Shown: positions 6,558-25,168, counted from the first letter of the stretch. The stretch is DNA of 42,442 nt from an uncultured bacterium (GCA_949295285.1 CASFKI010000022.1:1-42442); one strand, 5' to 3'. Translations and numbers: made by a program. The notes: generated by a model not told the origin, from the letters alone.

Positions 6558-7256
6558 ATGCAGTTAATTGAACTTAATAATGTTTATAAAAGATATAATA
6601 ATGGAGTAAATGCTTTATGTGATGTTAATTTGAAAATTGCTAAGGGAGAATTTGTGTTTTTAATAGGGGCATCAGGTAGTGGAAAATCAACATTAATTAA
6701 GTTACTTTATAGACAAGAAAAACCAACAAGTGGAGAAGTATTTGTTGGAGGAGTAAATGTTTCTAAATTAAGAAATGGAAAAGTATATAAGTTAAGAAGA
6801 AAACTTGGAATTGTTTTTCAAGATTATAAATTATTACCTAAATTGACAGTATATGAAAATGTAGCATTTGCTCTTGAAGTATATGGTTTAAAAGAAATAG
6901 AAGTAAGAAAAAGAACAATAAAAGCATTGGAACAAGTAGGACTTAAAGATAAACTAAGAAGTTATCCTGATGAATTATCTGGTGGTGAGCAACAAAGAGT
7001 ATCAATAGCAAGAGCAATTGTTAATAATCCAAAAGTATTAATATGTGATGAACCAACTGGTAATTTAGATCCGGAAACATCATTAGAAATAATTAAAGTA
7101 ATTGATCAAATAAATAATGAATTAGGAACCACTATTATAATGGCTACGCATGATAAAGATATAGTAAATAGGATGAAAAAAAGAGTAATTATATTAGATA
7201 AAGGTTTAGTTCAAAAAGATATATTGAAAGGAAAGTATAGACGTGAGAGCGATTAG
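6558..7256 (+). CDS. ftsE: cell division ABC ATPase FtsE
   Basis: Walker A GASGSGKS, VFQDYKLL, LSGGEQQR, DEPTGNLD; followed by ftsX. Confidence 0.95.
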   Translation: MQLIELNNVYKRYNNGVNALCDVNLKIAKGEFVFLIGASGSGKSTLIKLLYRQEKPTSGEVFVGGVNVSKLRNGKVYKLRRKLGIVFQDYKLLPKLTVYENVAFALEVYGLKEIEVRKRTIKALEQVGLKDKLRSYPDELSGGEQQRVSIARAIVNNPKVLICDEPTGNLDPETSLEIIKVIDQINNELGTTIIMATHDKDIVNRMKKRVIILDKGLVQKDILKGKYRRESD

Positions 7257-8142
7257 AATTTTAGGAAGGAATATTAAAGAATCATTTAAAGGTGTATTTA
7301 GAAATTTCTCATTATCAATTGCAAGTATATCATGTATAACTATTACGTTAATATTAGTTGGTTTTAGTATTTTATTGTCTTTGAATGTAAATAACTTAAT
7401 TAAAGAAACAGAAAATGATTTAAATATTGTTATTTTTTTAGAAAAAGGTGTTAGTGATGAGGAAATACAAGAAATTGGGAATTCTATTAGAAAAATGGAA
7501 AATGTTAAGGAAGTAACATTTAATTCTAATGAAGAAATTAAATCACAATGGGAAGAAGAGTCTGAAGAATTATCAGGGATATTACAAAACTATACAGAAG
7601 AAACAAATCCATTACAAGATACATATTTAGTAAGAGTTGATGACATTAATAACATAGGTAAGACAGCAGATGAAATAAAAAAACTCAATAAAATTGATAT
7701 AGTTAAATATGGAGAGGGCGCTGTTGAAGAATTAGTTAAAATATTTGAAATAGTAAAAAAAGCAACTTATGTAGTTGTAATAGCATTAATTATTGTAACA
7801 GCCTTTTTAATAACTAATACAATCAAAATAACTATTCAATCAAGAAGAAGAGAAATTGAAATTAGAAGATTAGTTGGAGCAAGTAATATGTATATAAGAC
7901 AGCCTTTCTTTTTTGAAGGTATTATTCTTGGTATAATAGGTTCAATTGTTCCAATAATAGTATGTTGTTTTGGATATAAATATTTATATGATAGATTAGG
8001 AGGGCAAATTTTTACTGCTATATTTAAGCTAGTAAATCCAAATGAATATATTTATATGATATTATTAGTTCTTGTTTTAATAGGTGCTGTAGTTGGTGCA
8101 TTTGGAAGTTTTAGAGCAGTAAGAAAGTATTTAAAAATATGA
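7243..8142 (+). CDS. ftsX: cell division permease FtsX
   Basis: TM1, extracellular domain, RRREIEIRRLVGA motif and three C-terminal TMs; overlaps ftsE. Confidence 0.95.
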   Translation: MRAIRILGRNIKESFKGVFRNFSLSIASISCITITLILVGFSILLSLNVNNLIKETENDLNIVIFLEKGVSDEEIQEIGNSIRKMENVKEVTFNSNEEIKSQWEEESEELSGILQNYTEETNPLQDTYLVRVDDINNIGKTADEIKKLNKIDIVKYGEGAVEELVKIFEIVKKATYVVVIALIIVTAFLITNTIKITIQSRRREIEIRRLVGASNMYIRQPFFFEGIILGIIGSIVPIIVCCFGYKYLYDRLGGQIFTAIFKLVNPNEYIYMILLVLVLIGAVVGAFGSFRAVRKYLKI

Positions 8143-9338
8143 TAAAAAAAAGTAATAAATATATTATATTATTATTAATAATTAGTTTTGGGATTTTCTA
8201 TATAGCTATTGATACGGCTGATGCTACCTCTAATAATACAACTTTAAAAGATTTAAAAGATAAATTAGCAGAAGATCAAGCAAAAGTAAATGAAATTGAC
8301 AAAGAAAAAGATCAAGTAGCAAATAAAATAAAAAATATTGAGGATGAATTATCTGATATAGAGAAAGATATAAATGAATGTGATGAAAAAATAACAGAAG
8401 CACAAAATAAAATAGAAGAACTTAATGAAAATATTAAAATAAAACAAGAAGAAATAGATAATCTTATGTTATTTAAACAAATTTCTGATGGAGATAATGT
8501 ATTTCTTGAGTATATATTTAATTCTAAAACATTTACTGATTTTATATATAGGGTATCAATAGTAGAACAATTATCTAAGTATAATGATGAATTAATAGAT
8601 AGTATGTATGATTTAATTGATGAAAATGAAAAAGCAAAAGTAGAATTAAATAAAAAAATAGAAGAGAATGAAGCAAATATTGTTAAATTAAGTTCAACAT
8701 TAAAAAAATATAATTTATCTATGGATGATTTAATGGATGATCATAAAGATGCTAAAGAAGATTTGACTGCTAGTAAAAAAGAAGTAGAAGCATATGAAAA
8801 ATTATATGAACAATATGGTTGTAAAGAAACTGATTCTATTATAGATTGTATTGATGTTCCATATGCTGATGGGCTAACTAGACCTGTTATTTCTGGAAGA
8901 GTAACTAGTGAATATGGTCTTAGATATCATCCTACACTACATTATTATAAAATGCATGAAGGAATTGATATTGGTGTATCAATGGGTACTAAAGTTTATG
9001 CTAGTGCTGCTGGTATTGTAAGTAAAATTACAAGAGTGGCAAATCCAAACAAACCAAATTCTAGTTGCGGTGGAAATAAAGTATATATTAAACATAGAAT
9101 TAATGGAAAAGAATATACTACAGTATATATGCATTTACATACAATAAATGTAAGTTTAAACGATTATGTTACACTAAGTACAGTGATTGGTACATCTGGC
9201 GGTGGAGAATCTTATGATTATTGTACTACTGGACCACATTTGCATTTTGGTGTACAATATGGAGGAAATTATGTAAATCCAAGAAATTACGTTAAATTTC
9301 CATCAAAAAATACTAAATTTACTAGTAGATGGGATTAA
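8139..9338 (+). CDS. FtsEX-associated coiled-coil (CwlO/PcsB-like) M23 metallopeptidase
   Basis: Signal or anchor sequence, long coiled coil, M23 zinc motifs HEGID, YMHL and TGPHLHF. Confidence 0.9.
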   Translation: MIKKSNKYIILLLIISFGIFYIAIDTADATSNNTTLKDLKDKLAEDQAKVNEIDKEKDQVANKIKNIEDELSDIEKDINECDEKITEAQNKIEELNENIKIKQEEIDNLMLFKQISDGDNVFLEYIFNSKTFTDFIYRVSIVEQLSKYNDELIDSMYDLIDENEKAKVELNKKIEENEANIVKLSSTLKKYNLSMDDLMDDHKDAKEDLTASKKEVEAYEKLYEQYGCKETDSIIDCIDVPYADGLTRPVISGRVTSEYGLRYHPTLHYYKMHEGIDIGVSMGTKVYASAAGIVSKITRVANPNKPNSSCGGNKVYIKHRINGKEYTTVYMHLHTINVSLNDYVTLSTVIGTSGGGESYDYCTTGPHLHFGVQYGGNYVNPRNYVKFPSKNTKFTSRWD

Positions 9339-9365: not shown

Positions 9366-10295
9366 ATGTCATTTACATCTAATATAAAAAATGAAATAAG
9401 TAATATAGAATATGGTGATTCTCAAACAATGGCAGAATTATCTGCAATACTAAATATAGGTGTTAAAATATTTGATGATAGATTTGAAATAATTACTGAA
9501 AATATTAGTGTAGCAAGAAGGATATATAAACTTATTAAAAAAATATATCATATTAATATTGAAATGGATAATTCTAATATAAATTCACTTAGAAAAAATA
9601 GATTAGTTTTATTGATTGTAAGAGAAAAAGTTAATTTTATATTAAAAGATTTATCTATAATCAATGATAATAGAGATAGAATTTATATACCATCTAAATA
9701 TTTAGTTGATGAATCAGAAGATAAACTTGCATATTTAAGAGGAATATTTTTGATGTGTGGTAGTATAAATGATCCAAAAAGAAATAGATATCATGCAGAA
9801 TTTGTATTATCTAAAGAAGATATAGCAGTTTATGTTAATAGTTTATTAAATGAATTTAATTTTAATAGTAAATTGATTAAAAGAGATAAAAATTATATGG
9901 TATATATAAAAGAAGCAGAAAAAATAAGCGATTTTATAAAGCTTTTAAATGCCACTACAGCGTTATTTTATTATGAAGATATAAGAATATATAGAGATCA
10001 TAAAAACATGACTAATCGGCTTAATAATTGTGAACAGGCTAATGTTGATAGAAGTTTAAATGCATCTAATGAACAATTAAAATTAATAGAAAAATTAAAA
10101 AAATTATATGATTTTGATTTAATAGATGAAAAAATAAGAATAGTTTGTATATATAAAGAAAAATATAAAGAAAGTTCTATGGATGAACTTGCAAAAATCA
10201 TAAGTAGTGAAACAGAAATACCTATAACTAAAAGTGGTATAAATCATAGATTTAGGAAAATAAAAGAAATGATTAAAGAAAAAGAAGATAATTAA
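9366..10295 (+). CDS. whiA: DNA-binding protein WhiA
   Basis: MSFTSNIKNE start, AYLRGIFL..GSINDP..YHAEF (LAGLIDADG-like), NRLNNCEQAN, C-terminal HTH TKSGINHRFRKI. Confidence 0.95.
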   Translation: MSFTSNIKNEISNIEYGDSQTMAELSAILNIGVKIFDDRFEIITENISVARRIYKLIKKIYHINIEMDNSNINSLRKNRLVLLIVREKVNFILKDLSIINDNRDRIYIPSKYLVDESEDKLAYLRGIFLMCGSINDPKRNRYHAEFVLSKEDIAVYVNSLLNEFNFNSKLIKRDKNYMVYIKEAEKISDFIKLLNATTALFYYEDIRIYRDHKNMTNRLNNCEQANVDRSLNASNEQLKLIEKLKKLYDFDLIDEKIRIVCIYKEKYKESSMDELAKIISSETEIPITKSGINHRFRKIKEMIKEKEDN

Positions 10296-10670
10296 TAATG
10301 ATACCATAATGCTAAGATATCATGTAGTGTTATTAAATTACTATTTATAGATAAAGAAGAAAGTTAAAAAGTTAAACGATAAAATGTTAAAAAAGACACT
10401 AATGTTATTAAAATATGTTTTAATATTAGTATAGTGAGTATTTATTGCTTTAAATTATCGATGGTAAAAGATATTATATTTTCTTTAATGAAATAAAAAT
10501 GTTAATTTATGGAAAAAGTTGTTAATTTTTGTGTGCAACTAAAAATACATATATTTTTATTGTTAAGATTAGCAAATGTATATGTGTAAATTTAAAAAAA
10601 CTTGATTCATATTTAAATTTAATTATATTTGATTGTATTTGAAAATAAACGTTAACTTAATTGTTAGATA

Positions 10671-10699
10671 ATGACAAAATTGATAATATTTGATATTAT
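10671..10699 (+). promoter_or_regulatory. sigma-A promoter for the uridine kinase-gap unit
   Basis: ATGACA-17 nt-TATTAT with extended -10 TG. Confidence 0.5.
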
Positions 10700-10724
10700 A
10701 TATATAGAATAAGAGGGTGAGTTT

Positions 10725-12368
10725 ATGAAGAAAGATGTGCAATTGGTATTTGACGATAGTAGGTTACTTGATATATATAAGGGTACCACTGTAAGAGAAG
10801 TACTAAAAGAACTTGGGGATGATGAAATAGTTGCACTTAAGATTAATGGGTCTGTTGTTAGTGCTGATTTTGAAATTAATCAAGATTCATACGTAAATTG
10901 TATAATGTTAAATGACAGAAGTGGTTTAAAAATATACATAGATGGATTAAAATATGTGTATATTAAAGCTATTAAAGAATTGTATGGTGATAAATCAGAG
11001 GTATTTATTAAACATTCTTTGGATAAAGGTTTATATACAGAAATTAAAATTAATAGGAAAGTTAATTCATTAGTAGTAAAAGAAATTAAGAAAAAAATGA
11101 AAGAAATATGTAATAAAGATATTCCTTTTAAAGAAATTAATGTTTCTAGAAATGATGCATTTGAATATTATAAATCAGTTGGTGAATATGAAAAGATGGA
11201 TAGTTATATATTTATGACTAATGATTCAGTGACAATGTATGAATTAGATGATGATTATAATTATTTTTATTACATAATGCCTGCTTCAACTGGTACATTA
11301 AAAAGATTCGATTTAACTCATGTAGAAGGAAATGGAATAGTTCTTAGTTATCCAATTAATAATAATGTTCCTAAGTATATACCTACTGGTAAAGTGTTAA
11401 ATGCATTTAAAGATTGTGAGAGTCAGCTTGAGAATGTTGGAATTAAATATGTTGGTGATTTAAATAGAATGATAGTTGATGGAAAAATTGCTGATTTAAT
11501 ACAAGAAAATGAAATAATATATAATAAAAATATGGATACTATTGCTAGCACGATAGTTAATAATAGAAATATTAAGTCTGTATTTATTTCAGGACCATCA
11601 TCATCGGGTAAAACAACAACGTCCAAGAAACTTGCTATGTATTTAAAAGCAAGAGGTGTTGATTCGTTTGTGTTATCTACAGATGATTATTTTGTAAATA
11701 GAGTAGATAGTCCAAGAAAAGCAGATGGTTCATATGAATATGAAATAATAAATGCAATTGATATAAAGCTATTTAATGATCATTTAAAGAAATTGTTAGA
11801 TGGTGAAGAAGTAGTAATTCCTACATATAATTTTATACTTGGTGAAAAAGAGTTTAAAAGAAATCCAATTAAGTTAAAGAAGAATCAAATTATTATTGTT
11901 GAGGGTTTACATGCTATTAGTGAAAAATTGAATCATATAATACCAAAGAAAAATAAATTGAAATTGTATATTAGTCCATTTACAACAATTGCATTGGATA
12001 GGCATAATCATATTTCTACAACTGATGTTAGATTGTTAAGAAGAATGATTAGGGATTATCAGCATAGAGGATATTCTGCTGAGGCAACATTAAATAATTG
12101 GATGGGTATGAGAAAGAGTGAGGAAGATTATGTCTATCCATATCAAAGGCAAGCTGATATAATTGTAAATACGTCTTTAGGATATGAAATTGGTGTATTA
12201 AGATTATTTGCAGAACCTTTGTTATATTCAATTAGTAAGGAGTCTGCTTATTATGAGGAAGCAATAAGAATATTAAAGTTTTTGAAAAGTTTTTTAAATA
12301 TACCTGGGGCTTATGTACCAAATGTAAGTGTATTAAGGGAGTTTATTGGTGATAGTTATTTTGAATAA
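10725..12368 (+). CDS. uridine kinase-family nucleoside kinase fused to a TGS/ThrRS-like N-terminus
   Basis: P-loop SGPSSSGKTT, STDDYF, IVEGLH, RLLRRMIRD, LREFIG; N-terminal ThrRS-like region. Confidence 0.88.
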   Translation: MKKDVQLVFDDSRLLDIYKGTTVREVLKELGDDEIVALKINGSVVSADFEINQDSYVNCIMLNDRSGLKIYIDGLKYVYIKAIKELYGDKSEVFIKHSLDKGLYTEIKINRKVNSLVVKEIKKKMKEICNKDIPFKEINVSRNDAFEYYKSVGEYEKMDSYIFMTNDSVTMYELDDDYNYFYYIMPASTGTLKRFDLTHVEGNGIVLSYPINNNVPKYIPTGKVLNAFKDCESQLENVGIKYVGDLNRMIVDGKIADLIQENEIIYNKNMDTIASTIVNNRNIKSVFISGPSSSGKTTTSKKLAMYLKARGVDSFVLSTDDYFVNRVDSPRKADGSYEYEIINAIDIKLFNDHLKKLLDGEEVVIPTYNFILGEKEFKRNPIKLKKNQIIIVEGLHAISEKLNHIIPKKNKLKLYISPFTTIALDRHNHISTTDVRLLRRMIRDYQHRGYSAEATLNNWMGMRKSEEDYVYPYQRQADIIVNTSLGYEIGVLRLFAEPLLYSISKESAYYEEAIRILKFLKSFLNIPGAYVPNVSVLREFIGDSYFE

Positions 12369-12380
12369 GGAGGAATAAAA

Positions 12381-13382
12381 ATGTTAAGAGTAGCCATTAA
12401 TGGTTTTGGTAGAATAGGAAGACTTGCACTTAGATTGATGCAGGATGATAAGGATATAGATGTGGTAGCAATAAATAATTTAAATTCAGATCCTGAACAA
12501 ATTGCATATTTATATAAGTATGATTCATCACATAGAACTAATAAAACTAAGATTAGTTATGATGAAAACAATTTAATCGTTAAAGGAAAAAAGATTAAGT
12601 TATTTGGTGAGGCTAATCCTGAGGATTTGCCATGGAAAAATTTAGATGTAGATGTGGTATTAGAGTGTACTGGGGTATTTACTTCAACTGAAAAGTGTAA
12701 GGCGCATATTAAAGCTGGGGCAAAGCATGTAATAATTAGTGCTCCTGCGAAGGATGATATTACTAAAACTATAGTTTATGGTGTTAATAATGATGAATTT
12801 TCGTGTGATGATTTAATAATTAGTGCTGCTAGTTGTACTACTAATTGTTTAGCGCCGGTTGTTAAAGTAATTGATGATAAATTTAAGATAATTAAAGGTT
12901 TTATGACAACTGTTCATGCTATGACGAATGATCAAGAAACACTAGATATTGCACATAAGAAAGGAATATATTCACGACGTGGTAGAGCTGCATCATTAAA
13001 TATTATTCCAACATCTACTGGGGCTGCATCACAAATTGGCAAAGTTATACCTCATTTAAAAGGTAAAATGGATGGTATTGCATTTAGAGTTCCAGTTGGG
13101 GATGGATCTGTTGTCGACATTACTTTAGAACTTAGTAAATTTGTAACTAAAGAATCAATAAATAATACAATAAAATCAAAACAAAGTAAGACATTGAAAT
13201 ATACTGAAGATCCAGTAGTTAGTAGTGATATTTTAGGCGAACAATGTGGTTCATTGGTAGATGGTCTTTTGACTAATGTTGTTGAAAGCGATGGAAAGCA
13301 ACTAGTTAAAATAGTTGCTTGGTATGATAATGAAGTAGGTTATACAGCCCAAATGATTAGAACTATGAAATTATTTAATTAA
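12381..13382 (+). CDS. gap: type I glyceraldehyde-3-phosphate dehydrogenase
   Basis: INGFGRIGR, catalytic ASCTTNC, TTVHA, WYDNE. Confidence 0.97.
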   Translation: MLRVAINGFGRIGRLALRLMQDDKDIDVVAINNLNSDPEQIAYLYKYDSSHRTNKTKISYDENNLIVKGKKIKLFGEANPEDLPWKNLDVDVVLECTGVFTSTEKCKAHIKAGAKHVIISAPAKDDITKTIVYGVNNDEFSCDDLIISAASCTTNCLAPVVKVIDDKFKIIKGFMTTVHAMTNDQETLDIAHKKGIYSRRGRAASLNIIPTSTGAASQIGKVIPHLKGKMDGIAFRVPVGDGSVVDITLELSKFVTKESINNTIKSKQSKTLKYTEDPVVSSDILGEQCGSLVDGLLTNVVESDGKQLVKIVAWYDNEVGYTAQMIRTMKLFN

Positions 13383-13404
13383 ACTTCTTTTTAGAAGTTT
13401 TTTT
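13381..13404 (+). terminator. intrinsic terminator after gap
   Basis: AAACTTCT-TTTT-AGAAGTTT plus T tail. Confidence 0.75.
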
Positions 13405-13471
13405 ATGTAAAGGTTTATTATAATTATAGATAAAATATTTATATTATAGTATAATTATCATGGAGTTTTGT

Positions 13472-16384
13472 ATGACAGTAAACATAAAAAAATTAAGAAA
13501 AAATTTATTATTTTTAATCATGTGTATTTTATTAATAGTAATTTTATCACTATTAAGTTTTTTACTTGATGAAGCGTCATATGATTTAGAAAAAGAATCT
13601 TTAAGTTCTGAGAATATTAATATAAATTCTCTTGTTATTAATGAAATAGTTTCGTCTAATAATGGTATTATTACTGATAGTGAAGGTAATTTATATGATT
13701 ATATTGAAATATATAACGGTAATAATGAAGATATTAATTTAAAGAATTATGGTTTAAGTGATGAAGAGCAGACAATTAAGTGGACATTTCCAGATGTGAC
13801 AATAAAAGCGAATGGTTATTTAGTGGTTAGTTTAAGTGGCAACAAAGATAATGTTTTAAATGCATCGTTTAAATTAAAATCTAGTGGTTCAGAGGTTGTG
13901 GCGTTATATAGGCCAGATGGTAAAGTAATAGATGGTATTGAGACAGTCGCTTTAGAATCTAATACTTGTATGGCTAGAAACCAAGATGGAACATGGGTAA
14001 TACAAGACAAGCCAACTCCGGGTTTTTCAAATAATGAACAAGGGCATAAAGAATTTTTAGAATCGTTAATTAGTGATGAAGAAAAGAGTATTGTAATTAA
14101 TGAAATTCTAGCTGATAATGAGGGTAACTTTAAAAATGGAAATAATGAATTTAGTGGTTATATAGAGATTAAAAATATATCCAATGAAACAATAGATATA
14201 ACTAATTATTCTTTATCTAATAGTGAAGATATTAGTTTTAAATGGCAGTTTCCACAAATGAAGTTAAAGCCTGATGAAGTTGTGGTTGTTTATACTTCTG
14301 GTACTAGTAGAAAGACGGGCGAATTAAATGCATCATTCAAATTAAAGAATAAAAATGGTGTAGCAATATTAACTAACAATAAGGGTAAAATAATTGATAA
14401 GATAAGTTATTCTAATTTAGCTAATGGGGTAGCTTATATAAAACAAGATAATGAATTTTTTAAAAGTAATTCTATTTCTCCTGGATATGATAATACAGTA
14501 GATGGAATTAATGATTTTCAAGAGAAATATTTAAAAAATCCTGATGATTTAATTATTAATGAAGCAATGAATTCTAATTATAGTTATCTTTCTCAAAATG
14601 GAGCTAATTATTATGATTGGATAGAATTATATAATAATACAAATAAAACAATATTTTTAAAAGATTATTGTCTAACCACTTCTTTAGATAATTCTTGTAT
14701 GTATAATTTAGAAGGTGTCGAATTAAAGAAGGGTGAGTATTATATAGTAATGGCATCTGGTGATACTAAATTATCTAATAATAAGTATAAACACACTAAT
14801 TTTAAGTTATCAGAAACTGAAAGTATATATCTAACTAAAGATGATAAAGTTATTGATTCTATGCTAATAACAAATGTTCCAAATGGTTATTCATATGGAA
14901 GGGGAAGTAAGTTTGGTCATTATTATTTTAGTAAGCCGACGCCTAGTAGTAAAAATTCAAATGGAATACAGACTATTTCTTATGAGCCATCAGCCTCTAT
15001 AGAAAGCGGTTTTTATGATGATAGTGTTAAAGTGTCTTTAAATGGTTATGGTAAAATATATTATACACTTGATGGCTCAACTCCAAATGAATCGTCTAAA
15101 GTTTACAGTAGTCCCCTTACTATAAAGGAGACTACTGTTTTAAGAATAATGAGTAAAGAAAGTGGTAAATTAAAAAGCGAAAATAAATCATATTCATATA
15201 TAATAGATGAAAGTCATAATGTGGCAGTAATGTCTCTTAGTATTGATCCGAATGATTTAAGAAAGGTAAATTCCAATACATCTTTAAATAGTAGCGTTAT
15301 CGAACCATGTGATGTTGAATTAATAGAAAAAGATGGAAGTGGTTTTAAAATTCAAGCGGGGCTTAAATTATTTGGCGGATCTACCAGAAGTTATCCTAAA
15401 AAAAGTTATGAGATAAAATTTAAAAAAGAATTTGGAGATACTGAACTCAATTATAATGTATTTAAAAATGTTGATAGTAGTGTGTATAATTCTTTAGTAC
15501 TTAGAACAGGTTCGCAAGATGAATTCGAGTATAATGATCAAAGAACTGTAATTAAGGATGTTGTTGCGACTTCTATTATGGCAGAGCATACAAATGTAGA
15601 TGTACAAGATTATAAATCTATTATTTTGTATATAAATGGTGAATATCATGGTATATATTTTATACGCGAAAAAGTGGATGAAACGTTTATAGCTAATCAT
15701 TATAATGTTGATGCAAATGTTGATAATACGAGTATACTTCGTATAGATGGTGAGATTAAAACTGGGAGTGATGATGAATACAATTCTATGATTAATTTTA
15801 TTAATAATAATTCTCTTAGTAATACAAATAATTATAATAAAATTAAAGAAAAAGTTGATATAGAAAATTTATGTGATTTTTGGATAGCTGAAATGTGGAC
15901 TGCTAATTATGATATTTTAAATGTTAGATATTTTTCAAATCCTAATGTTGACAATGGAAAATGGAAATTTATTTTTTATGATATAGATTCGGGCTTTTTT
16001 AGAACGACTAATAATTCATATAATGAGTATACTAATGCTTCTGGTATGGGGTATTGGAAATTTCCAACAACTTTACTTAGAAATTTAATGAAAAATAAAG
16101 AATTTAAAGAAACTTTTTTAGAAAGATTATCTTATAATTTAAAAAATACTTGGACATATGATAATGTAAGTAAAAAAATCGATGAAATAGTTAATGAGTT
16201 TGGAAAAAGTGAATTTGAAAGAAATGCAGAAAGATGGAATAATTCATATAGTAAATGGAATACTTCTATTGAAAGAATGAAAGAGTTTGCAAAAAAAAGA
16301 AATTCTTATATGATAAGTCAGGCTAAGTCTTATTTTGGCTTATCTAATAATGAAGTTGAGAAATATTTTGGTGATGTAGAGTGA
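13472..16384 (+). CDS. membrane-anchored protein with three lamin-tail domains, an Fn3-associated domain and a CotH kinase domain
   Basis: N-terminal TM; three repeats of (V/I)INE...(D/G)(Y/W)IE..N...(T/S)P(G/S); IYYTLDGSTP; CotH motifs GGSTRSYPKKSY, YINGEYHGIY..REKVD, NYD, WKFIFYDID. ATG 13472 follows GGAG (ORF track starts at 13460). Confidence 0.88.
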   Translation: MTVNIKKLRKNLLFLIMCILLIVILSLLSFLLDEASYDLEKESLSSENININSLVINEIVSSNNGIITDSEGNLYDYIEIYNGNNEDINLKNYGLSDEEQTIKWTFPDVTIKANGYLVVSLSGNKDNVLNASFKLKSSGSEVVALYRPDGKVIDGIETVALESNTCMARNQDGTWVIQDKPTPGFSNNEQGHKEFLESLISDEEKSIVINEILADNEGNFKNGNNEFSGYIEIKNISNETIDITNYSLSNSEDISFKWQFPQMKLKPDEVVVVYTSGTSRKTGELNASFKLKNKNGVAILTNNKGKIIDKISYSNLANGVAYIKQDNEFFKSNSISPGYDNTVDGINDFQEKYLKNPDDLIINEAMNSNYSYLSQNGANYYDWIELYNNTNKTIFLKDYCLTTSLDNSCMYNLEGVELKKGEYYIVMASGDTKLSNNKYKHTNFKLSETESIYLTKDDKVIDSMLITNVPNGYSYGRGSKFGHYYFSKPTPSSKNSNGIQTISYEPSASIESGFYDDSVKVSLNGYGKIYYTLDGSTPNESSKVYSSPLTIKETTVLRIMSKESGKLKSENKSYSYIIDESHNVAVMSLSIDPNDLRKVNSNTSLNSSVIEPCDVELIEKDGSGFKIQAGLKLFGGSTRSYPKKSYEIKFKKEFGDTELNYNVFKNVDSSVYNSLVLRTGSQDEFEYNDQRTVIKDVVATSIMAEHTNVDVQDYKSIILYINGEYHGIYFIREKVDETFIANHYNVDANVDNTSILRIDGEIKTGSDDEYNSMINFINNNSLSNTNNYNKIKEKVDIENLCDFWIAEMWTANYDILNVRYFSNPNVDNGKWKFIFYDIDSGFFRTTNNSYNEYTNASGMGYWKFPTTLLRNLMKNKEFKETFLERLSYNLKNTWTYDNVSKKIDEIVNEFGKSEFERNAERWNNSYSKWNTSIERMKEFAKKRNSYMISQAKSYFGLSNNEVEKYFGDVE

Positions 16385-17067
16385 AAAAATATAAGTATAG
16401 ACATGAATTAAAATTTAAAATATCTATTAGTGCAGCAGAAGTATTAAAACAAAAATTATCATTAATATTAAATAAAGATAAATATGCTATTTATGAAGAT
16501 GGTTCATATTTGATAACTAGTTTATACTTTGATAATAGAGAGTCTTCTTCATATTATGAAAAATTAGATGGTGTATTATATAGAAAAAAGTATAGAATTA
16601 GAATATATAATAATGATGATGGTTTTATTAGACTTGAGAAAAAATTAAAACATAATACATATACTGCAAAAGAGCAGATGTTGATTTCAAAAGATATATA
16701 TAGTAAAATAGTAAATGGTAAAATCCTAAAGATCGATGATGCTAGTGGATTGTTATTAGAATTTATAAATGATTATAAATTAAAAGGATTGGTGCCATCT
16801 ATTATTGTTTCGTATCATAGAATTGCATTTACATATCCTATAAGTGATGTTAGAATAACTTTTGATTCAAATATTCAAAGTGGATTGTATAATTATGATT
16901 TATTTGATAATAGAATGCCTAAATATAATATAGATGAAGAAGGCAAAATTGTATTAGAAGTTAAGTTTAATGAAATTTTACCACTACATATTGCTAATTT
17001 ATTAAATGATATTCCATCATGTAGGGAAGCAGTTAGTAAGTTTGCAATATGTAGAAAAATAAAGTAA
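16381..17067 (+). CDS. VTC / polyphosphate polymerase domain protein (CYTH/TTM fold)
   Basis: RHELKF, SLYFD, RKKYRIRIY, LEKKLK, YHR, RITFD, VLEVKF, SKF; overlaps the CotH stop (GTGA). Confidence 0.9.
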   Translation: MKKYKYRHELKFKISISAAEVLKQKLSLILNKDKYAIYEDGSYLITSLYFDNRESSSYYEKLDGVLYRKKYRIRIYNNDDGFIRLEKKLKHNTYTAKEQMLISKDIYSKIVNGKILKIDDASGLLLEFINDYKLKGLVPSIIVSYHRIAFTYPISDVRITFDSNIQSGLYNYDLFDNRMPKYNIDEEGKIVLEVKFNEILPLHIANLLNDIPSCREAVSKFAICRKIK

Positions 17068-17080
17068 GGAAGTGTTTTCA

Positions 17081-17773
17081 ATGAGTATAGTAGATACAAT
17101 TAAAAAATCAGTTTTAGAGAATTTTACAGGTACAGTAACAGCAGGTGATATGTTATTGTCACTTATAGTATCATTTATAATTGGAATATTTATAGTATAT
17201 ATATATAGAAAAACTTATACTGGAGTTGTTTATTCTAAAGCTTTTTCTTTATGTATATTATTACTTGCCATGGTTACATCTATGATTATTAGAACAATTA
17301 GTTCAAATATTACATTGTCTTTAGGTATGGTTGGTGCATTGTCTATTGTAAGATTTAGAACTGCTATTAAAGAACCTGTAGATACTGCTTTTATGTTTTG
17401 GGGAATTTCTGCAGGAATAATGGCTGGTGCGGGTTTATATATTCCTTCTTTGGTGGCATCATTAGCAATTGGTGTATTATATTTTATTGTATATTTAATG
17501 GGATTTAGAGTGTCAAATAGATATTTATTAGTTATAAAATATTATTCTGAGGCTCATAATGATGTAATAAAGAAATTAAAAACTATTAAGAAATTTAAAA
17601 TTAGAAGTAAATCAATATTTTCAAATGAAGTTGAATTATCATTAGAAGTAGATATAAAAGAAAATAATAAATCTCGAGCTAATATTGAAACTAATATAGT
17701 TGATCAATTTAAAAATGTTGATGGTGTTATTAATGCAAGTCTAATATCATATCAAAATGATTTTGGAGATTAA
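17081..17773 (+). CDS. DUF4956 family membrane protein
   Basis: LSLGMVGALSIVRFRTAIKEP signature, several TMs and a soluble ACT-like C-terminus; usual neighbour of VTC genes. GTG 17072 is an alternative start. Confidence 0.9.
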   Translation: MSIVDTIKKSVLENFTGTVTAGDMLLSLIVSFIIGIFIVYIYRKTYTGVVYSKAFSLCILLLAMVTSMIIRTISSNITLSLGMVGALSIVRFRTAIKEPVDTAFMFWGISAGIMAGAGLYIPSLVASLAIGVLYFIVYLMGFRVSNRYLLVIKYYSEAHNDVIKKLKTIKKFKIRSKSIFSNEVELSLEVDIKENNKSRANIETNIVDQFKNVDGVINASLISYQNDFGD

Positions 17774-17778
17774 TAATT

Positions 17779-19143
17779 ATGGCTAAGCGTAAAGTACTTA
17801 AAATAACACCAATTTTAGTGATTATAAATATCATTATATTAATTATAATCGCTGGATTTTATATATTCAGATTAGTTAAATATTATAGATTAGAAAATGT
17901 TCATAAGCCAAATGAAAAAATTTTATTAGTTAATAAACTAATAAAAACACAAAGTTACATTGATTTATCTAAAGGTCTTGTGTTTGATGATGAGACGAAT
18001 ACTTATGTATATAAGGGAAAAGTAGATAACAATTATGTATTTTATTCTGGAATATTGTTTAGAATATTGTCAATAGATGAAAATAAAAATATTAAGATGG
18101 TTAGTGATAACCCAGTAACATTAATGTATTCCGGTCTTGAAAAAGGATATAATAATTCTTATGTTAATAAATGGCTAAATAAAAGCGATGTTGAGAATAC
18201 TGGTATATTTGAAAAAATATTATATGATAGTGATAAATATCTTGTTAATAGTAATTTATGTGTTGATGTTGTTGATGATATTTCAAATAGTACATGTAAT
18301 AGTATAAGTAGTGATAATAAGATTGTTATATTATCATTAAATGATTATAAAGCTGCAGGTGGTCAAAATAGTTTTATTAATAATAATAGTTCTTATTATT
18401 TAAGTGATATTAATTCTAGTAATGATAATTACTATGTTAATAATGAAGGTGAAATTGGATTGGATCTTCCAACTAGAATACATGGAGTTAGACCTGTTAT
18501 AACTATTAGTGCCAATACTGAATTTTTAAGTGGCAATGGTAGTATTAATGAACCATATAAATTTGAAGAGCATAATGTATCTACATTAGCAGATACTTAT
18601 GTTGGTGATATAATAAGTATAGATGATATAAATTATAAAGTTGTTTATAAAGATGAAAATACCGTTAAGATAGTATTAAATGATGTTTATAGTGAAAATG
18701 ATAGTCCTACTTTAGTATATTTTGATAAGAAAAATAATGTTTATGATTCAAATAATGCATTATATGAATATTTAAATGATAAATACTTAAATACTCTTAG
18801 TATTAAAGATAAAATAATACCAAGAGATTGGTATGTTGGTAAATTAACTTTAGATAATTTAGATTATTTAAATGTTTATAAAAGTAAGTCTTATACTAAA
18901 ATAGGAATGCTTACTCTTGGAGATTTGTTTGTTAATGATTTAAATAATATTTTTACTTTATCAAGAGGTATTGAAGATGATACAATAATAAATATTATTG
19001 ATGATAGTGGTAATATATATGGTAATATGATAAGTAATAGACATTATGTTAGGCCAGCATTTAGTTTGAATGCTAGATTTAGTATTATTAGTGGAATAGG
19101 TAGTATTGATGGTCCATATGAAATAGGTGATATTGATGAGTAA
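17779..19143 (+). CDS. membrane-anchored protein with two tandem DUF6273-like domains
   Basis: N-terminal TM; repeat 1 NNYV..FRILSI..KMV..KWLN..LSLNDY..GVRPVI..GNGSINEPY; repeat 2 YKVV..KIV..EYLN..LTLGD..YVRPAF..GIGSIDGPY. Confidence 0.6.
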   Translation: MAKRKVLKITPILVIINIIILIIIAGFYIFRLVKYYRLENVHKPNEKILLVNKLIKTQSYIDLSKGLVFDDETNTYVYKGKVDNNYVFYSGILFRILSIDENKNIKMVSDNPVTLMYSGLEKGYNNSYVNKWLNKSDVENTGIFEKILYDSDKYLVNSNLCVDVVDDISNSTCNSISSDNKIVILSLNDYKAAGGQNSFINNNSSYYLSDINSSNDNYYVNNEGEIGLDLPTRIHGVRPVITISANTEFLSGNGSINEPYKFEEHNVSTLADTYVGDIISIDDINYKVVYKDENTVKIVLNDVYSENDSPTLVYFDKKNNVYDSNNALYEYLNDKYLNTLSIKDKIIPRDWYVGKLTLDNLDYLNVYKSKSYTKIGMLTLGDLFVNDLNNIFTLSRGIEDDTIINIIDDSGNIYGNMISNRHYVRPAFSLNARFSIISGIGSIDGPYEIGDIDE

Positions 19144-20197
19144 GAATAAAGAGAAAAAGAAAGGTATATTTCCTAAAGTATTAATTGGAATTGATGCAAT
19201 AGCTCTTATTTGCTTTTTTATAGCTTATGGTCCTTTTTCTTTTTTTAGAGATTTTATTGTAACAACTGCTATGACTACAATGAGTCATAAATATTTTGCT
19301 TATGTTTTATATAGTGAGAGTATGGTAGAAGATGTTCTTAATAATAATAGAGTGATTGAATCTAATGAATCAACTGATATTAGCGCAATAGATACTTCAT
19401 TAGGTGCTGATACTGGAGTATATGAATCTGTTTATGAGGAGCAGGTATTAAAACGAAATGAAGGAAATGATGTATATAAGGTAGTTGATATTGAGGGAGA
19501 TAATTGGAAAGGATATATGCTAGTTGTATATGATCCATCTAGATTAAGATTAGTTTTTTCTGATAATTATGGGAAAGGTGGAGAATATGTTTCAGAGATT
19601 GCTGAGGCAAATGATGCTTATATTGCTGTAAACGCTTCTGGCGTTAATTCACAACCAGGTGTTAATAAAATTACTGGTGTTGCGATTGTTGATGGTAAAA
19701 TTAAAGATCAAGGAAGGAATATAGATAAAGGTGGTGGAATAATTGGTTTTAATGAAGATAATGTATTAGTTTTAACAAAAAAATCTGCAAGTGAAGCAAT
19801 TAAAGAATATAATATAGATCGAGCTGTTGAATTTGGACCATTTTTAGTGGTTAATGGTAAAATGGCTGAATTTAAAGGTAATGGTGGATGGGGAATAGCA
19901 AATCGTACCGCTATTGGTCAAAGGCAAGATGGAATAGTTCTAATTATGGTAATAGATGGTAGAACAGTAGATTCAGTAGGAATATCTATGAAAGATTTAG
20001 CAGAATTATTTGTAAAATATAAAGCATATAATGCCGCAAATTTAGATGGCGGTGGATCGTCTACTTTATATGGAAAGAGAAATATTACTGATACGAAATC
20101 TAAGTTAATAAATACTCCTAAGGGGTATAATTATGATGGTGAGAGAAATCTTCCTAATGCTTGGGTAATAATACCAGAAGAAAATGATTTAAAATAG
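19136..20197 (+). CDS. NAGPA / phosphodiester glycosidase family protein (EpsL-like)
   Basis: N-terminal anchor, TTAMTTMSHKY, AVNASG, FGPFLVVNG, RTAIGQ, IDGR, AANLDGGGSS. ATG 19136 follows AGGTGA. Confidence 0.9.
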   Translation: MSKNKEKKKGIFPKVLIGIDAIALICFFIAYGPFSFFRDFIVTTAMTTMSHKYFAYVLYSESMVEDVLNNNRVIESNESTDISAIDTSLGADTGVYESVYEEQVLKRNEGNDVYKVVDIEGDNWKGYMLVVYDPSRLRLVFSDNYGKGGEYVSEIAEANDAYIAVNASGVNSQPGVNKITGVAIVDGKIKDQGRNIDKGGGIIGFNEDNVLVLTKKSASEAIKEYNIDRAVEFGPFLVVNGKMAEFKGNGGWGIANRTAIGQRQDGIVLIMVIDGRTVDSVGISMKDLAELFVKYKAYNAANLDGGGSSTLYGKRNITDTKSKLINTPKGYNYDGERNLPNAWVIIPEENDLK

Positions 20198-20215
20198 TTT
20201 AAAAGGAGATATAAT

Positions 20216-20773
20216 ATGGAAATTAATAGAAAAAATCCGAAAATTTATTTAATATGTGGTAAAGCTAAACATGGCAAAGATACCTTTTCATCATATTTGA
20301 AAAATCAATATGAAAAAAATAATAAAAAAGTTATAATAACACAATTATCTAAATATATTAAATATTATGCAAGAGAGATGACTGGTTGGAATTTAACTGA
20401 AGAAGATAAGCCAAGAGAGTTATTACAACAATTAGGTACTTCAGTTATTAGAGAACAACTTAAAAAAAATGATTTATTTATCAATAGGATGATAGATGAT
20501 ATTGAGGTATTTAGCTGTTTTTATGATGCAATAATTATAAGTGATGTTAGATTGAAAAAAGAAATTTCTTCTTTAAGAGAGAAATTTCCTAATTTAGTAC
20601 TCATTCATATTAACAGGCCAAATTTTGACAATGGTTTAACTGAAGAACAAAAAAAGCATAAAACTGAAATAGATCTTGATGATTTTAGTGATTTTAATAT
20701 TAATATAGAAAATACGACATTAGATAAATTAGAAAAAGATGCTGAAATTGTATACATGAATAATGAAAGTTAG
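20216..20773 (+). CDS. P-loop kinase resembling phage-type deoxynucleoside monophosphate kinases
   Basis: GKAKHGKDT, RELLQQLGT, IISDVR..E and HKTE..LD motifs. Confidence 0.7.
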   Translation: MEINRKNPKIYLICGKAKHGKDTFSSYLKNQYEKNNKKVIITQLSKYIKYYAREMTGWNLTEEDKPRELLQQLGTSVIREQLKKNDLFINRMIDDIEVFSCFYDAIIISDVRLKKEISSLREKFPNLVLIHINRPNFDNGLTEEQKKHKTEIDLDDFSDFNINIENTTLDKLEKDAEIVYMNNES

Positions 20774-20782
20774 GTGTAAAAA

Positions 20783-21925
20783 ATGAAGAATATTAAGGAT
20801 GTAAATGTTAAAGGTAAGAAAGTTTTAGTTCGAGTTGATTTTAATGTTCCAATTAAAGATGGGAAAATATTAGATGATAATAGAATAATATCAGGTTTAC
20901 CAACAATTAATTATTTAATAGATAATGGAGCGAAAGTTATCTTATTATCCCATTTAGGAAGAATTAAAAATGAAGAAGATAAGGAAAATAATAGTTTAAG
21001 GATAGTTGCTAAGAAATTATCAACACTTGTAAATGTTGCTGTATATTTTGTTCCATTTACAAGAGGTGATATATTAAATGAAACTGTTAATAATTTGTTG
21101 GAAAAAGAAATATTATTAGTCGAGAATACTAGATATGAAGATTATCCTAAAAAATTAGAAAGTTCTTGTGATGAAAGTTTATCTAAATATTGGTCTAGTT
21201 TAGCTGATATATTTGTATTAGATGCATTTGGTAGTGCTCATAGGTGTCATGCTTCTACTTATGGGATATCTAAATATATTCCTTCTTATGCTGGTATTCT
21301 ATTAGAAAATGAAATAGATATGTTAAATGAAGCATTAAAGGAAAAGAAGACTTTAGTATTAGGTGGTGCTAAAGTTGAAGACAAAATAGGAGTAATTGAT
21401 AGTTTAATATCATCTTCTAAAAATATTTTATTAGGTGGTGCTATGTGTTTTACATTTTTAAAGGCAAATGGTATAAATGTAGGCAAAAGCATAGTATCTG
21501 AAGAACATTTGGATTATGCTAAGAAATTATTATCTAAATATCATGATAAGATATTATTACCAATTGATGTAGTTACTCAAAATGGTATTAAGGATATTGA
21601 TTCATTAAATGATGATGATATTGGATATGATATTGGGATTAAAACAATTAATAAATACGAAGAAATATTAAGTAAAAGTAATTTTGTGTTATGTAATGGA
21701 CCACTTGGAAAATATGAAGAAAAAGAGTATGAAAACGGAACGAAAGAAATATTGAATTTTTTAAGTAAACAGAAATATCATACTATATTAGCAGGTGGAG
21801 ATATAGTAGCGGCTTCTAAACATTTTAATATTAAGCTATATTATTCATCTACTGGTGGAGGTTCGACATTAGAGTTTTTAGAAGGTAAAAAATTTAAAAC
21901 ATTAGAAAGATTAAATGGGGAATAA
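20783..21925 (+). CDS. pgk: phosphoglycerate kinase (compact, 380 aa)
   Basis: RVDFNVP, SHLGR, ENTR, DAFGSAHR, GGAKVEDKI, GGD, STGGG. Confidence 0.96.
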   Translation: MKNIKDVNVKGKKVLVRVDFNVPIKDGKILDDNRIISGLPTINYLIDNGAKVILLSHLGRIKNEEDKENNSLRIVAKKLSTLVNVAVYFVPFTRGDILNETVNNLLEKEILLVENTRYEDYPKKLESSCDESLSKYWSSLADIFVLDAFGSAHRCHASTYGISKYIPSYAGILLENEIDMLNEALKEKKTLVLGGAKVEDKIGVIDSLISSSKNILLGGAMCFTFLKANGINVGKSIVSEEHLDYAKKLLSKYHDKILLPIDVVTQNGIKDIDSLNDDDIGYDIGIKTINKYEEILSKSNFVLCNGPLGKYEEKEYENGTKEILNFLSKQKYHTILAGGDIVAASKHFNIKLYYSSTGGGSTLEFLEGKKFKTLERLNGE

Positions 21926-21928
21926 AAT

Positions 21929-22627
21929 ATGAAAAAAGTGATTCTTAATCATGAAAGTTATTTATTATATGATGAAATAATTAAATTTAAAAAAGAATTT
22001 GAGTCTTTAAATTATGATAAAATCAAGTTTATTATATTTCCATCAATTCAATATTTAAGTTTATTTAATAATGTAGATTATGCAGTTGGGGCGCAGAATT
22101 TCTATTCATCTAATCAAGGCGCATTTAGTGGAGAAATTAACTTAGAGTCACTTAAAAACATGAAAATTAATTATACATTAGTTGGTCAATCACAAAGAGT
22201 AAATTATATTTACGAAGATAAAAAATTAATAAAAGAGAAACTATTTAAATCATTAAATAGTAAATTTAATACTTTATTGTGTATTGGTGAGAGTAAAAAC
22301 ATGAATAAACCTTATTATACTCTTAAAAAAGAAATTAATTTTTATTTAAAAGAAATTGAAAGAAATAAATTAAAATATTTATCTATTGTATATGATCCTA
22401 AGTATTTTATGAATTGTATTGATATTGATAATTTAAAAATTATTTATAGAAAGCTTAAATTATACATTAAAAGTAAATATAATATCAATGTCGATATATA
22501 TTATGGGGGATTGGTTAATTATAATAGTGTTAAAGATTTGTTTGATGTATTTGATGGAATTGTATTAGATAAATTAAGTATAAGCATTAATAGTGTAAAA
22601 AGAATATGTAATAAATTAGAAGAATAA
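21929..22627 (+). CDS. tpiA: triosephosphate isomerase-like protein with degenerate active site
   Basis: Follows pgk; GAQN, GAFSGE, LCIGE and YGG scaffold retained, but NWK>NHE, GHSER>GQSQR and YEP>YDP. Confidence 0.85.
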   Translation: MKKVILNHESYLLYDEIIKFKKEFESLNYDKIKFIIFPSIQYLSLFNNVDYAVGAQNFYSSNQGAFSGEINLESLKNMKINYTLVGQSQRVNYIYEDKKLIKEKLFKSLNSKFNTLLCIGESKNMNKPYYTLKKEINFYLKEIERNKLKYLSIVYDPKYFMNCIDIDNLKIIYRKLKLYIKSKYNINVDIYYGGLVNYNSVKDLFDVFDGIVLDKLSISINSVKRICNKLEE

Positions 22628-22640
22628 TATATTCTTTTTT

Positions 22641-22667
22641 TATGACACTATATTACAATTTTAGACA
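22641..22667 (+). promoter_or_regulatory. three degenerate 0A-box-like heptamers at 10-bp spacing upstream of spo0A
   Basis: TATGACA (22641), TATTACA (22651), TTAGACA (22661) compared with consensus TTCGACA. Confidence 0.4.
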
Positions 22668-22735
22668 AAATAAGTCTTTTTTTATAGTAGAAATATATAT
22701 AATTTTAGTACTATAATAAAATAAAAGGAGAGAAT

Positions 22736-23497
22736 ATGAAGATTAAAGTATTAGTAGTAGATGATAATGATATGACAGTAAATTTAATTATGAAGTACTT
22801 TAATGGGAGTAAAGAAATAGAAATTATAGGTAAAGCAAAAGATGGGTTAGAAGCAATTGAAAAAATTAAATCTAATGATGTTGATGTAGTATTATTAGAT
22901 TTAATTATGCCAAACAAAGATGGTATTGGTGTTCTTGAATATTTAAAGAAAAATAATATCAATAAAAAAGTTATTATTATGAGTTCATATGGTGAAGAGG
23001 ATACAATAAAGAAGTTGTGTGAATATGGCATTAAATATTTTGCTTTAAAACCATTTAATATTGATGATATTAAAGATAAGGTTATAGAAGTTGGTAAATC
23101 AAAGAAAAATAATGAAAAATTATTGGAATTGTCTGATAAAAACATGCAAATAAAAGTAACGAAATTATTACATGAATTAGGAATACCATCTAATATTAAA
23201 GGATATCAATATATAAGAACAGCAATATTAATGGTATATGATAATCCAGGATTTATAGGAGGTATTACTAAAGAATTATATCCAGATATATCATTTAAAT
23301 TTAATACTTCAATACAAAGGGTAGAAAGAGCTATTAGACATGCTATTGAGGTATCTTGGTTAAGAGGAGATATAGATTTAATGGAAGAAATATTTGGACA
23401 TAGTGTAGATATTGATAGAGCTAAACCAACAAATTCAGAATTTATAGTTACTATAGCAGATAAGTTAAGATTAGATATGATAAATGTAAAAGCATGA
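22736..23497 (+). CDS. spo0A: sporulation master regulator Spo0A
   Basis: Receiver domain (VDD, LDLIMP, KPF) plus Spo0A_C motifs LGIP..IKGY.Y, ITKELYP, RVERAIRHAIE, KPTNSEFI. Confidence 0.96.
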   Translation: MKIKVLVVDDNDMTVNLIMKYFNGSKEIEIIGKAKDGLEAIEKIKSNDVDVVLLDLIMPNKDGIGVLEYLKKNNINKKVIIMSSYGEEDTIKKLCEYGIKYFALKPFNIDDIKDKVIEVGKSKKNNEKLLELSDKNMQIKVTKLLHELGIPSNIKGYQYIRTAILMVYDNPGFIGGITKELYPDISFKFNTSIQRVERAIRHAIEVSWLRGDIDLMEEIFGHSVDIDRAKPTNSEFIVTIADKLRLDMINVKA

Positions 23498-23513
23498 AAA
23501 AATCATGCTTTTA
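23487..23513 (+). terminator. intrinsic terminator overlapping the spo0A stop
   Basis: TAAAAGCATGA-AAAAA-TCATGCTTTTA, a perfect 11-bp stem. Confidence 0.75.
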
Positions 23514-23554
23514 ATATGATTAATCTTGTGCTACAATTGTAACAGGTGAAAACT

Positions 23555-25051: not shown

Positions 25052-25168
25052 ATACATTATTTTATAAATTTTGTATTTTTTTTTAATATAAAAGAAAATA
25101 GATTTACACTAATAAAATTATGTGTTAAACTATAATAGAAAATAAGTAAAAGTAGGGAAGGGATTGCA

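Follow-up and report, generated by a model that had tools for sequence, protein, structure and literature searches.

In the window, by which we mean the whole 42,442-nucleotide (nt) stretch of an uncultured bacterium that was analysed (GCA_949295285.1 CASFKI010000022.1:1-42442), consecutive genes encode a surface protein with a CotH kinase-like domain, a VTC-domain protein and a DUF4956 membrane protein. We report that VTC and DUF4956 form an obligate unit, which is new here, and that either CotH or a Cthe_2159 protein is its outside partner. Tentatively, and with more doubt than confidence, we read the locus as a conserved envelope module in which polyphosphate made by VTC at the membrane would be handed outward by DUF4956 and used by CotH on a glycan or protein of the cell surface; that the product is polyphosphate, that it is exported and that CotH uses it are all points that we infer.

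A sequence-only reading of this DNA, made earlier by a model, had proposed a polyphosphate-powered system for extracellular phosphorylation, an interpretation that is plausible and is sharpened here, though unproven. The three co-directional, tightly coupled genes that it described are where it had placed them, spaced at -4 and +4 nt and with intact motifs. The span that it gave, 13472..17773, does hold the three open reading frames (ORFs), but 13472 is the second in-frame ATG of the CotH gene, an alternative start, and three more packed genes follow (17779-20773). Pfam returned the domains that it had named (three lamin-tail domains, an Fn3-like domain and CotH; VTC; DUF4956), and hydropathy and AlphaFold2 predict the topology that it had assumed, with the CotH domain outside, VTC soluble inside and DUF4956 multi-pass.

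VTC and DUF4956 form an obligate pair with alternating outside partners

We compared 15 loci from relatives and 80 loci from a contig search with a six-sequence alignment; their ORFs were predicted by a simple greedy script and labelled by Pfam (116 ORFs from 13 loci) or by local hidden Markov models (HMMs) built from those. These relative loci and the 80 further ones bear out that the trio recurs in bacteria. DUF4956 directly follows VTC in 15/15 relative loci, and of the 77 VTC genes that the 80 loci contain it directly follows 68, the other nine being located at contig ends (four) or beside small antisense or unlabelled ORFs (five). The same coupling was found at the level of genomes, for which we used 149 scored genomes of a phylum sample, all from one class and at least 90% complete (two more were unscorable). 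Twenty-nine of the 149 were VTC-positive, and DUF4956 was present in 28, all within those 29, where its copy number equals that of VTC and the genes adjoin, and in 0 of ~120 VTC-negative genomes. Among 14 named controls, VTC and DUF4956 occurred together only in B. thetaiotaomicron, C. glutamicum and M. acetivorans, where CotH is also present (presence only, arrangement aside). A table row in the literature has BT3498 (DUF4956) adjoining BT3499 (DUF2490). Chance neighbourhood was rejected on these adjacency and co-occurrence counts: the co-occurrence analysis that the sequence-only reading had put forward as a check places VTC-DUF4956 coupling far beyond chance. One genome labelled Bacteroidaceae (G183) carries only Firmicute-like loci.

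VTC is present in 24/24 genomes of the genus to which the host belongs, each of ~0.9 to 1.7 Mb, and in 8 of the 16 other families sampled; retention of the module in 24 of 24 such small genomes argues for an important cell-surface role in these uncultured gut bacteria.

CotH, which had been taken as a fixed member of the system, proved not to be obligate. It was found in 28/150 genomes, of which 19 are VTC-positive (out of 29) and nine VTC-negative, and each of the remaining 10 VTC-positive genomes has Cthe_2159 (PF14262) instead, beside DUF4956 in seven of them; Cthe_2159 also occurs in 5 of ~120 VTC-negative genomes. N-terminal hydrophobic signals were detected in 68/74 CotH and 5/6 Cthe_2159 proteins. 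We take Cthe_2159 to resemble pectate lyases and to bind calcium. We built a quick maximum-likelihood tree from 61 concatenations of VTC with DUF4956 (24 near-duplicate loci left out); it has long branches and a biased sample, and in it the pairs split deeply (SH-aLRT 100) into a clade of seven, with five Cthe_2159, two without partner and no CotH, and a clade of 54 rows, with 45 CotH, seven without partner and two Cthe_2159. Both module types can coexist, as in genome G038 (loci L012 and L013).

The VTC protein matches the catalytic domain of yeast Vtc4

The 228-residue VTC protein matches PF09359 with 113.9 bits against a cut-off of 23 (112.9 in the genome search) and has no hydrophobic segment (maximum KD19 of 1.20); it is predicted to be cytoplasmic with a Vtc4-like triphosphate-tunnel fold. 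A 12-sequence VTC profile matched yeast Vtc4 (3g3q, E 1.5e-19) and, more weakly, the inactive Vtc2 (1.3e-11) and Vtc3 (1.4e-8). Profile alignment to 3g3q/5iiq brought R72/R74 of the window protein onto HRLRWY, E193/K195 onto LEVK and S219/K220 onto FSKF of Vtc4, whose tunnel and catalytic residues we take to be R264/R266, E426 and S457/K458. All three of these residue pairs of the window protein are included in the 22 positions that are invariant across 58 sequences, 24-82% identical to it.

We regard it as very unlikely that VTC is instead a tunnel-fold hydrolase of nucleoside triphosphates (NTPs) or triphosphate that would energise or gate DUF4956, the latter moving something else, for instance a cation or glycan-linked precursor. 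E9, an additional acidic residue in the first strand that is invariant where Vtc4 has Thr, would suit a hydrolase, being presumably nearer the ExExK motif of hydrolytic tunnel enzymes, but the polymerase Vtc4, and no other tunnel enzyme, gave the best structural-sequence match, and the aligned basic tunnel residues are all invariant. As for the cargo, MgtC, which DUF4956 resembles (see below), was first tied to Mg2+ transport loci according to a passage of bioRxiv 10.1101/2024.04.20.589940, yet our comparisons of DUF4956 by Foldseek, Pfam MgtC and VIA-align found no transporter signature.

Nine of 12 longer VTC matches have a basic low-complexity N-terminal tail. In P0126-P0134 this tail spans 180-260 residues before VTC, is rich in K/R/P/A/E and has the conserved start RDDDIFRKL...KPL. 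Separately, the VTC match of one of the 24 genomes of the genus (G007:C1:1153376-1153918) contains five in-frame stops (2 TGA, 1 TAG, 2 TAA) and may be decayed.

DUF4956 combines a multi-pass membrane part with an ACT-like domain

The DUF4956 protein matches PF16316 with 40 bits (cut-off 30.6), and its relatives begin at the position that matches ATG 17081. The family is large: 9077 representative clusters match it at E <= 1e-3, and 6316 still do so at E <= 1e-10. AlphaFold2, run with 58 sequences (mean predicted local distance difference test score, pLDDT, 82.9), modelled an N-terminal helix, five membrane helices (24-48, 56-76, 80-97, 102-119 and 123-142) and a C-terminal beta-alpha-beta-beta-alpha-beta domain. 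Within the motif GMVGALSIVRFRTAIKEP, R94 and R96 are invariant and K100 is near-invariant; if the C-terminal domain is cytoplasmic, the model would put all three at the cytoplasmic end of helix 3.

The top Foldseek match of the C-terminal domain was 2lqj (E 3.8e-3, TM-score on target 0.67), while VIA-align gave Z 10.3 for 7qa5 and Z 10.0 for 2lqj, level with other ACT domains. Pfam MgtC (PF02308) gave weak matches in 30/58 family members (E <= 1, best 2.1e-5), the window protein itself being without a match at E <= 1. For the membrane part, Foldseek and VIA-align returned no fold match that covers it, a result with no bearing on fold novelty. The proposal that VTC and DUF4956 are a split VTC synthase-translocase holds in one half only: the two behave as one unit (15/15 loci and 68/77 VTC genes; 28/29 genomes), but DUF4956 looks MgtC-like and unlike the yeast channel. 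Complex prediction for a 1:1 VTC and DUF4956 pair, run without controls, gave ipSAE values of 0.00 and 0.01, which count neither for nor against binding.

The CotH protein is a predicted ectoprotein that retains both catalytic aspartates

The 974-residue surface protein contains lamin-tail domains in three stretches (Pfam, E 9e-40), a segment at residues 515-574 matched by CHB_HEX_C_1 (1.8e-14) and Fn3_assoc (1.7e-11), and CotH (PF08757) at residues 636-951 (nt 15365-16312; 147.6 bits against a cut-off of 23.8, E 8.1e-43). Hydropathy revealed one hydrophobic segment, at residues 16-34 and preceded by KKLRKN, and we predict an N-terminally anchored ectoprotein with its kinase-like domain outside. 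CotH-family proteins outside the cell occur widely, cellulosomes, gut bacteria and fungi being examples. Neither a spore-coat location nor coat-protein substrates are indicated for the window protein, which, as judged from its sequence, has an N-terminal signal-anchor and extracellular-type domains.

A CotH profile search matched B. cereus CotH (5jd9, E 8.8e-12), with D818 and D841 of the window protein aligned to its NFD and WDYD motifs at the same 23-residue spacing, and the equivalents of both residues are invariant in the six VTC-linked CotH sequences aligned (6/6). According to a part of PMC7821199, the change D228Q or D251A renders B. subtilis CotH inactive as a kinase. That both catalytic Asp are kept favours catalysis over mere binding. 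This bears on an alternative that we think unlikely, in which exported polyphosphate would be an end product, a polyanion of the surface or matrix that CotH and Cthe_2159 bind, anchor, cap or trim with no use of it as a donor. CotH and Cthe_2159 have no fold in common, although either could deal with a linear polyanion; the latter, carbohydrate-binding by its Pfam name, is a beta-helix protein; some VTC relatives bear the 180-260-residue basic low-complexity tails described above; and the trio is located in matrix polysaccharide loci. Set against these points are the catalytic Asp pair, kept in 6/6, and the fact that surface polyphosphate is without evidence in any of these organisms.

DUF4956 is fused to CotH in other proteins

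Longer relatives of DUF4956 number 156 at E <= 1e-3, and 96 among the 120 matches listed combine CotH with DUF4956, so that the fusion is recurrent; examples are P0192 (269 members), P0219 (662 members) and P0252 (45 contigs), and clusters of such size argue against an assembly artefact. Pfam analysis of 11 of these longer relatives placed the DUF4956 membrane part N-terminally with CotH behind it in eight. In the fusion sequences that we read, the last DUF4956 helix runs into a hydrophobic stretch, followed by CotH, an acidic/glycine-rich linker, a transmembrane helix and an RRRPRKQ tail; the terminal helix and tail would place CotH outside, tethered at both ends. Uniform identity values suggest that the fusion comes from one or a few lineages.

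Other apparent fusions were set aside, and none among the 12 longer VTC matches was convincing as a VTC fusion. P0132 (CotH+VTC) looks like read-through that includes the start of the next gene, and P0135 and P0136 hold only partial pieces of three domains. The VTC-DUF4956 fusions P0138, P0139, P0140, P0153 and P0218 are single sequences that may reflect lost stops, whereas P0144 and P0158 look like deletion joins.

Polysaccharide loci and downstream genes

Earlier publications describe the trio as an accessory of Gram-positive pel operons and assign it no function. Our search of the literature found no functional study of DUF4956, of CotH together with polyphosphate and VTC, or of bacterial VTC-domain polyphosphate polymerases. 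In bioRxiv 10.1101/768473 (= PMC7112168), cotH, a "poly-phosphate polymerase", DUF4956 and DUF4832 are accessories that adjoin pel operons in streptococci, clostridia and bifidobacteria. A passage of bioRxiv 10.1101/2024.04.20.589940 describes the trio SIR_1594/1593/1592 of S. intermedius, with the membrane protein placed in the MgtC family by CDD, and the same passage has the combination not found outside pel operons. In our data PelG lies within 8 kb of only four of the 80 VTC loci (L052, L057, L058 and L097), the other 76 being without it; the trio is thus mostly independent of pel, contrary to that preprint's negative search. PelG was found neither in the window nor in the rest of the host genome (90% complete). 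As described in part of PMC11677781, a related cluster, NELoc-2 of C. perfringens, has CotH along with two VTC-domain proteins, a HEAT protein and a glycosyltransferase.

Three kinds of exopolysaccharide locus contain the trio in our set: pel (L052), a GT2/HEAT/GGDEF-EAL type (L013 and a Planococcus plasmid), and a cluster on the Pseudobutyrivibrio plasmid pNP95, where glycosyltransferases, acyltransferases and pyruvyl transferases surround it. Two-component systems are often found upstream of the VTC-DUF4956 pair, and such systems or cyclic di-GMP (c-di-GMP) enzymes are frequent in its flanks.

Downstream of DUF4956 in the window are genes for a 454-residue surface protein and a phosphodiester glycosidase of the NAGPA family. 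The 454-residue protein has no Pfam match; DUF6273 was assigned in 6 of 20 relatives and in Atlas clusters, and the sole Foldseek match was to the non-catalytic part of the IgA peptidase 9qa6 (E 4.9e-5). Its gene stays adjacent to DUF4956 in loci of the same genus. NAGPA accompanies the trio in 32 of the 80 loci, Christensenellaceae-labelled ones included, and joins a Cthe_2159-type module in L017. In a genome with neither VTC nor DUF4956 (G112, L108:1406-8131, + strand), a secreted protein of 2241 residues unites NAGPA (117-293), a purple-acid-phosphatase-like domain (1002-1294), choline-binding repeats (~1607) and CotH (1896-2232). Taken together, NAGPA, this protein and the polysaccharide-locus contexts suggest phosphate chemistry on glycans of the wall or matrix.

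In a sister clade, the NAGPA protein encoded after DUF4956 is 535-617 residues long, with ~350 extra N-terminal residues (L039:9370-10977, L042:9371-11128 and L043:9340-11193), and in these three loci the separate DUF6273-type gene is missing or shifted upstream. The gene for a 185-residue P-loop protein that follows NAGPA in the window is missing in the relatives L019 and L021, and its membership of the module is therefore doubtful.

Layout of the window and host genome

All genes lie on the + strand of the window, whose G+C content is ~25%. The module forms a wedge of six tightly packed genes in a row of glycolytic genes, between gap and pgk, the successive spacings along this row into pgk being -4, +4, +5, -17, +18 and +9 nt.

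Table 1. Genes of the module and its flanks in the window (lengths in amino acids, aa)
Feature	Position	Strand	Remarks
gap (GAPDH)	12381..13382	+	Upstream flank; ends 77 nt before the CotH gene
CotH-domain surface protein, 974 aa	13460..16384	+	ORF call, Pfam, hydropathy
VTC-domain protein, 228 aa	16381..17067	+	GTG start; 4-nt overlap with the CotH stop
DUF4956 membrane protein, 233 aa	17072..17773	+	GTG start; ATG at 17081 likelier
DUF6273-type surface protein, 454 aa	17779..19143	+	Anchored at N-terminus
NAGPA-family phosphodiester glycosidase, 356 aa	19127..20197	+	Anchored at N-terminus; 17-nt overlap with preceding gene
Small P-loop kinase-like protein, 185 aa	20216..20773	+	Weak DNMK and P-mevalo_kinase matches
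pgk + tpi	20783..22627	+	Downstream flank, starting 9 nt and 3 nt past the preceding genes; pgk is 20783-21925

The host assembly amounts to 1,026,016 bases in 66 contigs and is 90.1% complete. A whole-genome search detected one VTC and one CotH, and searches of this genome (1.03 Mb, 90% complete) for PPK1, PPK2 and Ppx-GppA found none. The nearest public records are uncultured gut metagenome-assembled genomes labelled Bacilli, Erysipelotrichaceae, Tenericutes or Mollicutes. A promoter and terminator scan of 10200-25200 was uninformative at 25% G+C, yielding 148 promoter-like sites against 136.6 expected and two terminator-like sites against 1.6.

Elsewhere in the window, spo0A (receiver domain and Spo0A_C; 22736-23497, +) lies within the glycolytic row, between tpi and the gene for phosphoglycerate mutase. 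A DHH-CBS-DRTGG-DHHA2 protein (321-1955, +), which has the architecture of CBS-domain family II pyrophosphatases, is the sole other enzyme handling phosphoanhydrides that we noticed there. An ordinary cell-division block occupies 6558-9338 (+), with ftsE-ftsX, a PcsB-like M23 peptidase with a coiled coil, and whiA. Two long ORFs, 25169-26971 (+; 600 aa) and 2537-4195 (+; 552 aa), have no Pfam match (E <= 1e-5 or 1e-3).

A possible route for phosphate to the cell surface

Were the tentative reading correct, VTC, drawing on ATP or another NTP, would polymerise phosphate at the membrane, and DUF4956, probably oligomeric, would take the chain at its basic cytoplasmic face (R94, R96 and K100) and pass it outside. 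There CotH would use the chain as phosphoryl donor for a cell-surface glycopolymer or protein, or attach it to one, and the NAGPA phosphodiester glycosidase and the DUF6273 surface protein might act on the same substrate. The module suggests a means of phosphate chemistry where ATP is lacking, and ties together the phosphoryl donor of outside CotH, the function of bacterial VTC and the biochemical role of MgtC-like proteins. Extended to bacteria and archaea at large, with VTC and DUF4956 as a polyphosphate synthase-exporter whose product is the donor for outward CotH, and elsewhere for Cthe_2159, in modifying wall or matrix glycans, the proposal seems to us improbable; it would give the MgtC family its first biochemical part to play, as a phosphate-polymer conduit.

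Several points speak against this route. To judge by sequence and model, DUF4956 looks MgtC-like and unrelated to the yeast VTC transmembrane domain, and we know of no transport role for MgtC-like proteins. The invariant bacterial E9 of the first strand aligns with a Thr in Vtc4, so that the chemistry of VTC may differ. Secreted or lipoprotein CotH occurs in seven of the nine CotH-positive, VTC-negative genomes, the other two having been missed by the local HMM, and B. subtilis has CotH without VTC; outside CotH thus needs neither the core pair nor an exported donor in general. The 80 loci were those that best matched the window VTC, so that they over-represent the CotH-linked branch, and they include kin that are not independent. 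No activity, product or transport is reported for bacterial VTC or DUF4956 in the literature that we searched. Finally, in the passages concerned of bioRxiv 10.1101/2024.04.20.589940, MgtC works by binding other membrane proteins and not as a channel, and the polyphosphate of S. intermedius "may remain in the cytoplasm".

Much of this would be accommodated if polyphosphate, or another VTC product, stayed internal, with DUF4956 as an MgtC-like anchor or regulator of ATP/phosphate balance or of a polysaccharide synthase, a reading that we hold to be rather unlikely; CotH would then act alone outside with another donor, and clustering would reflect co-regulation for building matrix or envelope, to which we give the same weight. 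The resemblance of DUF4956 to MgtC and the existence of secreted CotH without VTC are in line with it, as are the c-di-GMP enzymes or two-component systems that often flank the pair, and cytoplasmic polyphosphate is what the cited passage of bioRxiv 10.1101/2024.04.20.589940 proposes, no other part of the VTC complex being present. An internal product nonetheless leaves unexplained why 29/29 VTC-positive genomes have one of two secreted partner types, why the core pair falls into partner-specific clades and why the DUF4956 membrane part is fused to an outward-facing CotH, as well as the upkeep of the pair in 24/24 members of a genus whose genome of ~1 Mb, in the case of the host, yielded no PPK or PPX. 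These features count in favour of export to an outside partner, the reading that we tentatively prefer.

Comparison with known systems

What is new here is the alternation of CotH and Cthe_2159 as partners, the likeness of DUF4956 to MgtC, the DUF4956-CotH fusion, the PelG-free loci and the DUF6273 and NAGPA members. Relative to the yeast VTC complex, the window module has a matching Vtc4 domain with the aligned tunnel residues kept, and its enzyme is likewise paired with a membrane protein. However, the window VTC has neither an SPX domain nor a covalently attached membrane domain, its bacterial membrane partner being a separate gene product that is MgtC-like and not of the Vtc1 type, and the target would lie outside the cell rather than in a vacuole.

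Spore-coat CotH of B. subtilis and B. cereus (5jd9) is alike in the CotH domain and in the catalytic Asp pair with identical spacing, but is a 360-residue coat protein of the mother cell, whereas that of the window is a membrane-anchored multi-domain ectoprotein; B. subtilis, a control genome, has neither VTC nor DUF4956. The Gram-positive pel accessories comprise the same three families in the same order, an arrangement that we recovered in L052, L057, L058 and L097. The window differs from them in having gap and pgk as neighbours, three lamin-tail domains, and DUF6273 and NAGPA instead of DUF4832. Clusters like NELoc-2, as described, have VTC, DUF4956, CotH, a large unknown protein, HEAT and a glycosyltransferase, the order seen in L013 and the Planococcus plasmid, whereas the window has CotH first and lacks the HEAT and GT2 genes. 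With MgtC of Salmonella, Mycobacterium and Pseudomonas, DUF4956 shares its architecture, a multi-pass N-terminal part followed by a C-terminal ACT-like domain, but MgtC has no VTC enzyme as its partner, and the invariant RFR motif is DUF4956's own.

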